A DNA stretch of 64,000 nt. Source: Escherichia phage ev_rybdy3. The stretch is taken from the sequence record PQ819470.1. One strand, written 5' to 3'. The translations under genes and the position numbers were made by a program. The notes under the pieces are model-generated. The model saw only the letters and a list, made by a program, of their open reading frames with translations, was not told where the DNA came from and did not search any database. Below, piece after piece: positions 54,470-55,054 of this stretch (its first letter is position 1; each line of letters begins with the position of its first letter).

Positions 54470-54614
54470 ATGTAGGGTTGACCTACCTCTTTTAGAAAGT
54501 GCTCAAGGAAAAGCACTAGCCACTACGTTGGAGTGGTATCAGGACCAGTACACAGAATGTGCTGCCAATCACAATGGATTGCTAGAAGCTCTGAAAGAGC
54601 GTGGAATAGAATAA
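54354..54614 (+). CDS. o-spanin (Rz1-like outer-membrane lipoprotein), overlapping i-spanin in another frame
   Basis: Starts inside i-spanin gene; signal peptide MRKLNQFFIMSALVMSMSA|C with lipobox; short mature domain. Confidence 0.5.
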   Translation: MRKLNQFFIMSALVMSMSACSMSDNSRQSMPLPTNLKAECRVDLPLLESAQGKALATTLEWYQDQYTECAANHNGLLEALKERGIE

Positions 54615-55054
54615 TGGCTATTGTTTTTGAAGGAAAAGCCAATGTATTCACGGTGGACGTCCAAACAGTAACCTGTACAGTGAACCTAGTTGGTGTAATG
54701 GGTGCAGGAGTGGCTAAGGAGTATAAAAGAAGATACCCTGAAGCTTTTGAGAGATATAAAGTTGCTTGCAACTCAGGATTCCAGATTGGACAACTACTCC
54801 TCCAGAGGCTAAATGATGGGAGGCTGGGACTATGTTTTCCAACCAAGAAGCATTGGAGAAATAGTTCAGAAATAGGGTGGATAGAACAAGGTTTACAAAA
54901 GTTACTACTTACCTACAAAGAGAAGGGTATAACATCTTTGGCGATAACACCTTTAGGCTGTGGTAACGGAGGGTTAGATTACCAGTCTCAGGTAAGACCT
55001 ATAATGTTTAAGTATCTAAATCAGATGGACATACCTGTCTATATCTGTTTATAA
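54614..55054 (+). CDS. Macro-domain-like protein (putative ADP-ribose binding/hydrolase)
   Basis: [15 protein letters not shown] and [13 protein letters not shown] segments resemble macro domain Gly-rich loops; 146 aa. Confidence 0.35.

Follow-up and report, generated by a model that had tools for sequence, protein, structure and literature searches.

A stand-alone DarG-type macrodomain in Escherichia phage ev_rybdy3 and its probable role as an AdfM-like counter-defence enzyme

Why would a lytic phage carry, between its spanin genes and the gene of its sigma factor, the enzymatic half of a bacterial antitoxin? The question is raised by a 146-codon open reading frame (ORF) of Escherichia phage ev_rybdy3 (PQ819470.1), which lies on the plus strand at 54614..55054 of the 64,000-nt stretch of DNA analysed here (the window), with its ATG at 54614 and its TAA ending at 55054. 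The original prediction, made from the DNA letters, had described the product as a macro-domain-like protein with two Gly-rich loops, encoded next to the lysis spanins, which could reverse the ADP-ribosyl marks of DarT-type toxins or degrade ADP-ribose-derived defence signals. By ORF analysis, Pfam and PDB searches, structure prediction and the ratio of non-synonymous to synonymous rates (dN/dS), the coding sequence (CDS) is characterised here as that of a stand-alone DarG-type macrodomain, AdfM-like and orthologous to phiEco32 gp37. Our preferred interpretation, to which we assign a probability of about 0.77, is that the product is an orphan antitoxin-like DNA ADP-ribosylglycohydrolase, which would erase DarT2 marks on phage DNA as an AdfM-type counter-defence factor; we infer its substrate, its catalytic activity and its counter-defence role in this phage from the evidence below.

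The window comes from a phiEco32-like Kuravirus, phiEco32 being the type Kuravirus (Gordonclarkvirinae). Over this region, identity is 100% with Escherichia phage ev_rybdy8 (PQ819471) and ~96% with phiEco32. The macro annotation is already known from the RefSeq record of phiEco32, which labels the 146-aa orthologue gp37 "Appr-1-p processing enzyme family", and publications of 2025-2026 described the class of stand-alone DarG-like phage macrodomains together with its mechanism. New here are the placement of the kuravirus gene with DarG and AdfM, the clean presence/absence polymorphism of the cassette and the promoter embedded in it; the gene opens no new concept.

Fold, family and active site of the macrodomain

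In the Pfam search, the protein matched the Macro family (PF01661) over residues 22-125 with 41.6 bits, against a gathering cutoff of 22 (E 1.3e-10). The AlphaFold2 (AF2) model, for which an alignment of 63 sequences served as input, reached a mean predicted local distance difference test score (pLDDT) of 96.4 and a predicted template modelling score (pTM) of 0.90, with six strands and four helices in an order consistent with the macro fold. Foldseek comparison of this model with the PDB returned 186 macrodomain-type matches at E<=1e-3, and the four highest-ranking ones were all DarG macrodomains (template modelling score, TM, 0.87-0.92; identity 34-40%), namely Thermus aquaticus DarG (TaqDarG) with ADP-ribose (TM 0.92), apo TaqDarG, Mycobacterium tuberculosis (Mtb) DarG and the Thermosipho DarTG fusion. 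Human TARG1 followed with a TM of ~0.82, and after it came generic viral and bacterial macrodomains. The phmmer search of PDB sequences gave E values of 2.4e-28 for the Mtb DarG macrodomain, 2.6e-26 for Thermosipho DarTG and 9.7e-25 for TaqDarG, while TARG1 reached just 0.046.

DarG-specific profiles gave consistent results. The PADLOC DarG profile matched at 4.7e-45 over model positions 6-142 of 329, and the NCBIfam antitoxin_DarG model matched at 7.5e-42 over positions 6-144 of 338, with a score of 143.8 bits; the lack of DarG's C-terminal half keeps this score under the equivalog cutoff of 250. The protein stops at residue 146, compared with ~330-370 aa in full DarG, and the DarT-binding C-terminal domain is absent. 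Judged by these profiles and by the model, the macro assignment made in the original prediction can be regarded as secure, and the subfamily as DarG-type.

Comparison with phiEco32 gp37 showed 32 synonymous and 5 non-synonymous differences, with a dN/dS of 0.034. When compared with an 80%-identical copy from a Chaseviridae phage, synonymous sites were saturated and the proportion of non-synonymous differences (pN) was 0.16. These values indicate that the gene is real and under purifying selection, and no chance ORF.

The active site was delineated on the plus strand by alignment. N24 together with the loop VGVMGAGVA (54683..54715 from N24 to residue 34; the loop itself, residues 26-34, occupies nt 54689-54715) corresponds to the first ADP-ribose-binding loop, and PLGCGNGGL (residues 113-121, 54950..54976) to the mobile diphosphate-binding loop of TaqDarG, so that both Gly-rich loops proposed earlier were found in place. 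Beyond these two loops there is a third motif, FPTKKHW (residues 75-81, 54836..54856), which is the predicted catalytic lysine block, with K78 encoded at nt 54845-54847.

In TaqDarG, ADP-ribose is contacted by N8, L9, T20, N22, V31, Q34, T79, G117, G119, N120 and G121, and the residues studied by mutation are K80 (catalytic; its replacement by Ala abolishes activity), N22, K29, G119, H82 and W83, of which W83 was proposed to stack on the thymine (Jankevicius et al., PMC5179494). The contacts map by alignment to N10, V11, T22, N24, V33, E36, T77, G115, G117, N118 and G119 of the phage protein, and K80, K29, H82 and W83 map to K78, A31, H80 and W81, respectively. Identity was found at 12 of the 15 listed contact or mutated residues, including K80>K78, N22>N24, W83>W81 and the whole G-x-G-N-G loop. 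Among 96 aligned DarG-type sequences, K78, T77, W81, G115 and G119 were invariant and N24 was present in 95, and K78 and W81 were also invariant in the alignment of 63 sequences. The counterparts of N24, which are N22 in TaqDarG and N23 in PhiKZ AdfM, have been shown by mutation to have a role in activity (PMC5179494, PMC13309987).

Human TARG1 (C6orf130), the next-closest solved fold, likewise has a lysine (Lys84) at the catalytic position matching K78. Unlike the phage protein, with which it shares 19-20% identity, TARG1 has A90 at the position of W81 and its second catalytic residue, D125, at the position of G119, and its substrate is protein-linked ADP-ribose (PMC5179494). W81 and G119 are DarG signatures.

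Relatives of the protein and the proposed mechanism

To survey cellular relatives, one genome per prokaryotic species was scanned and the best 80 matches were kept. These bacterial and archaeal relatives were mostly two-domain proteins of 290-375 aa, and in 65 of the 80 loci a same-strand neighbour matched the Pfam DarT family PF14487. Two arrangements were observed: a canonical DarT (~200 aa) followed by DarG (~370 aa), and, more commonly, a macro protein (~300 aa) followed by a long DarT (~330 aa), as in loci L021:3001-4895 and L040:3001-4856. The long DarT-like neighbours matched PF14487 over its full length and carried in addition a C-terminal extension of ~120 aa.

A phage-borne toxin-antitoxin pair was considered and rejected. 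A DarT hidden Markov model built from 65 sequences had no match in any of the six translated frames of the window, and a tblastn search with the 65 DarT sequences gave only scattered hits at E>=0.03. No darT gene is listed in the annotation of the whole phage record, and the product of 54614..55054 is the sole macrodomain in the window. The protein shares with the DarG of DarTG2 systems (Taq and Mtb, PDB 5M31/5M3E/5M3I; Thermosipho DarTG, 7OMU) the macrodomain subfamily, the catalytic lysine and the ADP-ribose contacts, but it corresponds only to the N-terminal ~145 residues of a 330-370-aa protein and is encoded in a lytic phage without a darT partner, whereas DarG belongs to a bacterial toxin-antitoxin locus.

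The nearest characterised protein is gp104 of phage PhiKZ, which received the name AdfM in 2026 (Morgan et al., Cell Rep 2026, PMC13309987). PhiKZ AdfM strips DarT2-made ADP-ribose from a TNTC oligonucleotide in vitro, with lower activity in the N23A mutant; it rescues DarT2 toxicity, and it is needed by PhiKZ and PhiPA3 on DarTG2 hosts (PMC13309987). The window protein aligned with PhiKZ gp104 over its full length at 41% identity (E 1e-35), with N24 opposite N23. Each is a DarG2-like macrodomain that a phage encodes as a stand-alone protein; the two are similar in size and have the catalytic N and K, the W, the GxxNGG loop and the VMGAG variant in common, and the mechanism of PhiKZ AdfM, the removal of DarT2 ADP-ribose from DNA, would be expected of the window protein as well. 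In a neighbour-joining (NJ) tree, PhiKZ AdfM clustered with the window protein and the close relatives of the latter, all of them stand-alone proteins of 146-163 aa, apart from the DarT-linked ones. The two proteins differ in a ~10-residue insertion and a C-terminal tail, which are present in the PhiKZ protein and absent from the window protein. Furthermore, the PhiKZ protein works together with the phage nucleus, into which it is imported. Kuraviruses are podoviruses of ~77 kb, and the annotation of this phage's record lists no genes for nucleus formation; therefore, the kuravirus protein would act in the cytoplasm.

Two other phage systems follow a related concept. T4 Tk.4, also named AdfM, is genetically needed by T4 on DarTG2 hosts (HIDEN-SEQ preprint, bioRxiv 10.1101/2025.11.20.689424) and is likewise a stand-alone macrodomain of a coliphage with the same functional concept, but it belongs to another macrodomain subfamily and is without the TKKHW motif. 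Identity of the two proteins was rejected, since BLASTP gave 22 bits over 32 residues; they belong to the same fold class, and probably represent independent recruitments of the macro fold. AdfN proteins, the phage NADAR orphan antitoxins against DarTG1, also place the enzymatic half of an antitoxin in a phage, where it erases the toxin's mark on DNA; unlike the window protein, they have the unrelated NADAR fold, act on the guanine-ADP-ribose of DarT1 only and have no effect on DarTG2 (PMC11825919). DarTG2 is active when the host grows slowly (PMC11825919).

In the mechanism that we propose, infection of DarTG2-carrying E. coli would free DarT2, which would transfer ADP-ribose from NAD+ to thymidines within the TNTC motifs of phage single-stranded DNA and in this way halt phage replication. 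The phage protein, which would be produced alongside the middle (replication-period) genes, would grip the ADP-ribose by its two Gly-rich loops and set the modified base against W81; K78, aided by N24, would then cut the ribose-thymine bond and give back unmodified DNA. The protein would target the mark and not the toxin, and therefore should neutralise any thymidine-modifying DarT2. Possibly, the kuravirus enzyme also acts on marks made by the long DarT-like toxins of its bacterial relatives.

Two functions had been offered in the original prediction, and they fared differently. The reversal of DarT-type marks gained support from the DarG proteins as best solved relatives, the DarG profiles, the DarT linkage in 65 of 80 relatives and the 41%-identical PhiKZ AdfM. 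The degradation of ADP-ribose-derived defence signals found no support in any result here.

The presence/absence cassette and the weighing of interpretations

The homologues numbered 589 at E<=1e-5 in a large protein collection, and tblastn found 265 phage records. About 43 phage records contained a copy that was at least 80% identical at the protein level, while 98 records matched the surrounding 6 kb. With a 2.8-kb query, the relatives separated by coverage, which was 100% in one set and ~84% in the other; Bas91, with 100%, carries the gene. Alignment with Kuravirus IMEP8 showed that the difference consists of a presence/absence cassette of 463 bp (54619..55081, plus strand), which comprises the macro gene plus the short spacer that separates it from the sigma-factor gene and is flanked by a 5-nt ATGGC repeat (54614-54618 and 55077-55081). 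In IMEP8, where the cassette is absent, the o-spanin (outer-membrane spanin) stop overlaps the ATG of the sigma-factor gene. The macro gene is also missing from the more divergent kuraviruses KBNP1711, ECBP2 and Bas87.

Copies also occur outside the kuraviruses. The unrelated Chaseviridae phage vB_EcoM_DE15, a 54-kb myovirus, carries an 80%-identical copy (L005 5001-5441) among small hypothetical genes, just upstream of the gene for the single-stranded DNA-binding protein (SSB), and metagenomic contigs of ~52-54 kb carry copies at 68-82% identity. The Chaseviridae and metagenomic copies point to horizontal exchange. Recent capture from E. coli was rejected, as a search of 5,426 complete E. coli genomes with the gene (blastn, word size 11) gave no match, leaving no homologue at the DNA level in that set. 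Such an accessory distribution is typical of counter-defence genes. Kuraviruses reportedly show unusual resistance to those defence systems that have been tried on them (PMC11990801).

The 3' end of the macro gene contains a predicted sigma-70-like promoter (55026..55055, plus strand; TGGACA, an 18-nt spacer and TATAAT, 11/12 matches) that faces the sigma-factor gene. A promoter serving sigma gene 36 had been predicted within phiEco32 gene 37 (PMC8948821), and one had also been predicted for the sigma gene of SU10 (PMC4281155). Relatives without the cassette are also without this promoter, so that cassette-positive and cassette-negative phages may regulate the sigma gene differently. One could go further and regard the 463-bp unit as a self-contained counter-defence cassette that moves between the unrelated coliphage groups Kuravirus and Chaseviridae and determines whether a therapeutic-type kuravirus grows on DarTG2-positive E. 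coli, and whose promoter also advances or strengthens the middle/late switch. We consider this extended version rather doubtful; if true, the carriage of counter-defence would be tied to the regulatory timing of the phage.

Several points weigh against the gene being an eraser of DarT2 marks. About half of the kuraviruses manage without it. Two of the DarG contact or mutated positions are changed, K29>A and Q34>E, and K29E lowered the activity of TaqDarG (PMC5179494); the K29>A change (VMGAG for VMGKG) is present in 18 of the 96 aligned sequences, PhiKZ AdfM among them, and because the active PhiKZ AdfM has it too, it is not inactivating. The stand-alone group excluded all DarT-linked sequences in just 69 of 100 bootstraps of a simple NJ tree, so a separate group with PhiKZ AdfM is suggestive, not firm. 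One macrodomain clade can take several substrates, and sequence cannot by itself give specificity. A literature search for Kuravirus and DarTG returned no paper with both terms and no experiment on a kuravirus orthologue, and the BASEL characterisation of Gordonclarkvirinae left DarTG out of its tests (PMC11990801). In phiEco32 and SU10 the block that holds the macro gene consists of middle genes, together with DNA polymerase and nucleotide-metabolism genes (PMC8948821, PMC4281155); a position in a middle-gene block with spanins, not an immediate-early one, could be late for counter-defence.

The enzyme might instead reverse another ADP-ribosyl mark and still be a counter-defence eraser, its substrate being the marks of the long DarT-like toxins, RNA modified by CmdT-type enzymes, or protein modified by transferases of the host or of competing phages. 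Most of the closest bacterial relatives do have the macro gene first and then a ~330-aa DarT with a C-terminal extension, the fold is near that of TARG1, a protein de-ADP-ribosylase, and a defence system that ADP-ribosylates mRNA exists (PMC11618068). We nevertheless regard this as unlikely, since the protein has the DarG-specific W81 where TARG1 has alanine and a glycine in place of TARG1 D125, its nearest characterised relative works on thymidine-ADP-ribose in DNA, and the long DarT-like neighbours give full-length matches to the thymidine transferase family PF14487. Less probable still is a housekeeping enzyme of ADP-ribose metabolism, such as an ADP-ribose-1''-phosphate phosphatase or an O-acetyl-ADP-ribose deacetylase, that clears by-products of NAD without any anti-defence role. 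It is suggested by database names ("Appr-1-p processing enzyme family" for phiEco32 gp37, "phosphatase" for PHROG 335 and "O-acetyl-ADP-ribose deacetylase" for homologues at JGI), but such names are generic labels of the macro superfamily and not tested functions. In addition, the protein groups with DarG and not with MacroD/Poa1p-type enzymes, its relatives are tied to DarT toxins, and its patchy presence among near-identical phages fits badly with housekeeping.

Macrodomains in general bind ADP-ribose, and this general property is the only argument for a sponge or hydrolase that binds or degrades ADP-ribose-derived immune signals, such as the gcADPR or His-ADPR of Thoeris. The full catalytic set of a base-linked ADP-ribose glycohydrolase is conserved, homology and genomic context lead to DarT and DarG, and no result here favours signals, which makes this role very improbable. 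The least credible explanation is that the coding sequence is incidental and the cassette is retained mainly for the 3' sigma-70 promoter of the phage sigma-factor gene. That promoter is strong and was also predicted in the literature (PMC8948821, PMC4281155), but the dN/dS of 0.034 and the invariant catalytic residues speak for selection on the protein, cassette-negative phages, whose sigma gene is coupled to the o-spanin gene, are viable, and homologues occur in phages that have no such downstream sigma gene.

Removal of DarT2 marks from phage DNA thus remains the preferred reading of this gene. Kuraviruses, which are phiEco32-like podoviruses, are often isolated and are among the candidates for phage therapy. 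Should gp37 indeed act against DarT2, their host range on DarTG2-positive E. coli would be predictable from a single small gene, which about 40 of about 98 sequenced relatives carry and the others lack; the natural presence/absence pairs among kuraviruses offer a ready-made experiment. The AdfM strategy would then not be bound to the nucleus of jumbo phages, and would be spread over podoviruses, Chaseviridae and jumbo phages, apparently by horizontal transfer.

Gene neighbourhood, start codon and middle promoters

The proximity to lysis genes noted in the original prediction was confirmed. Directly upstream of the macro gene lie an Rz-like inner-membrane spanin (i-spanin) gene (54119..54469; PHROG 1152, 2.7e-37) and, overlapping it, a small ORF of 57 aa (54441..54614) with a lipobox-like MSAC, which is annotated as o-spanin in related phages. 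The ATG of the macro gene shares bases with the o-spanin stop (TAATG). A lysis role deduced from this adjacency was rejected, because IMEP8-type phages couple the o-spanin gene straight to the sigma gene without a macro gene; such a role is also at odds with the Chaseviridae homologue, which is placed among small hypothetical genes upstream of the SSB gene. The adjacency is therefore real but incidental.

The start of the macro gene is annotated differently among records. In GenBank PQ819471 (ev_rybdy8), CDS JIDBFKNK_00022 starts 57 nt upstream, at 54557, which gives 165 aa and overlaps the o-spanin frame. This frame and a longer one of 173 aa (GTG 54533) were rejected, since the homologues begin at ATG 54614 and the added codons lie within the region of the spanin frame; the 146-aa RefSeq annotation of phiEco32 also favours the start at 54614.

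Downstream of the macro gene is the gene of the phage sigma factor (55077..55721), after which come a PHROG 289 "GTP-binding domain" protein, a deoxynucleoside monophosphate (dNMP) kinase and a 5'-3' exonuclease. The gene run is headed by a gp40-like ORF of 248 aa (53316-54062), which matched solely PHROGs without known function (phrog_6599, 1e-118), and a terminator-like hairpin (54084-54101) was observed 3' of it.

Upstream of the gp40-like ORF there is an exact match (53248..53256, plus strand) to the middle/late promoter element of the gp36 holoenzyme, TAATGTATA, according to the phiEco32 consensus (PMC8948821). By its position, it is a candidate promoter for the run of the gp40-like, spanin and macro genes. 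Enrichment of the motif was rejected, as the window contained 14 copies of the gp36-type motif, below the 19.8 expected from shuffled sequence. Three copies of the element cluster in the intergenic stretch 53187-53266, where the exact match at 53248-56 (plus strand) is accompanied by an exact match at 53187-95 (minus strand) and a copy with one mismatch at 53258-66 (minus strand); this cluster may be a divergent promoter region.

Two further observations were made. A 68-nt segment of the spanin overlap (54353-54420) showed ~79-81% identity to the i-spanin/o-spanin region in most of ~200 further records, which matched nothing else of the 2.8-kb query and, among the matches listed, were mainly Felixounavirus-like myoviruses of Escherichia and Salmonella. 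At ~27350-35800 of the window, the annotations include an amidoligase, a COOH-NH2 ligase, a GlmS-like glutamine amidotransferase and an ATP-grasp "S6 glutaminyl transferase", with a gamma-glutamyl cyclotransferase and a nucleotidyltransferase near this block, a gene set that is common to phiEco32-like phages.

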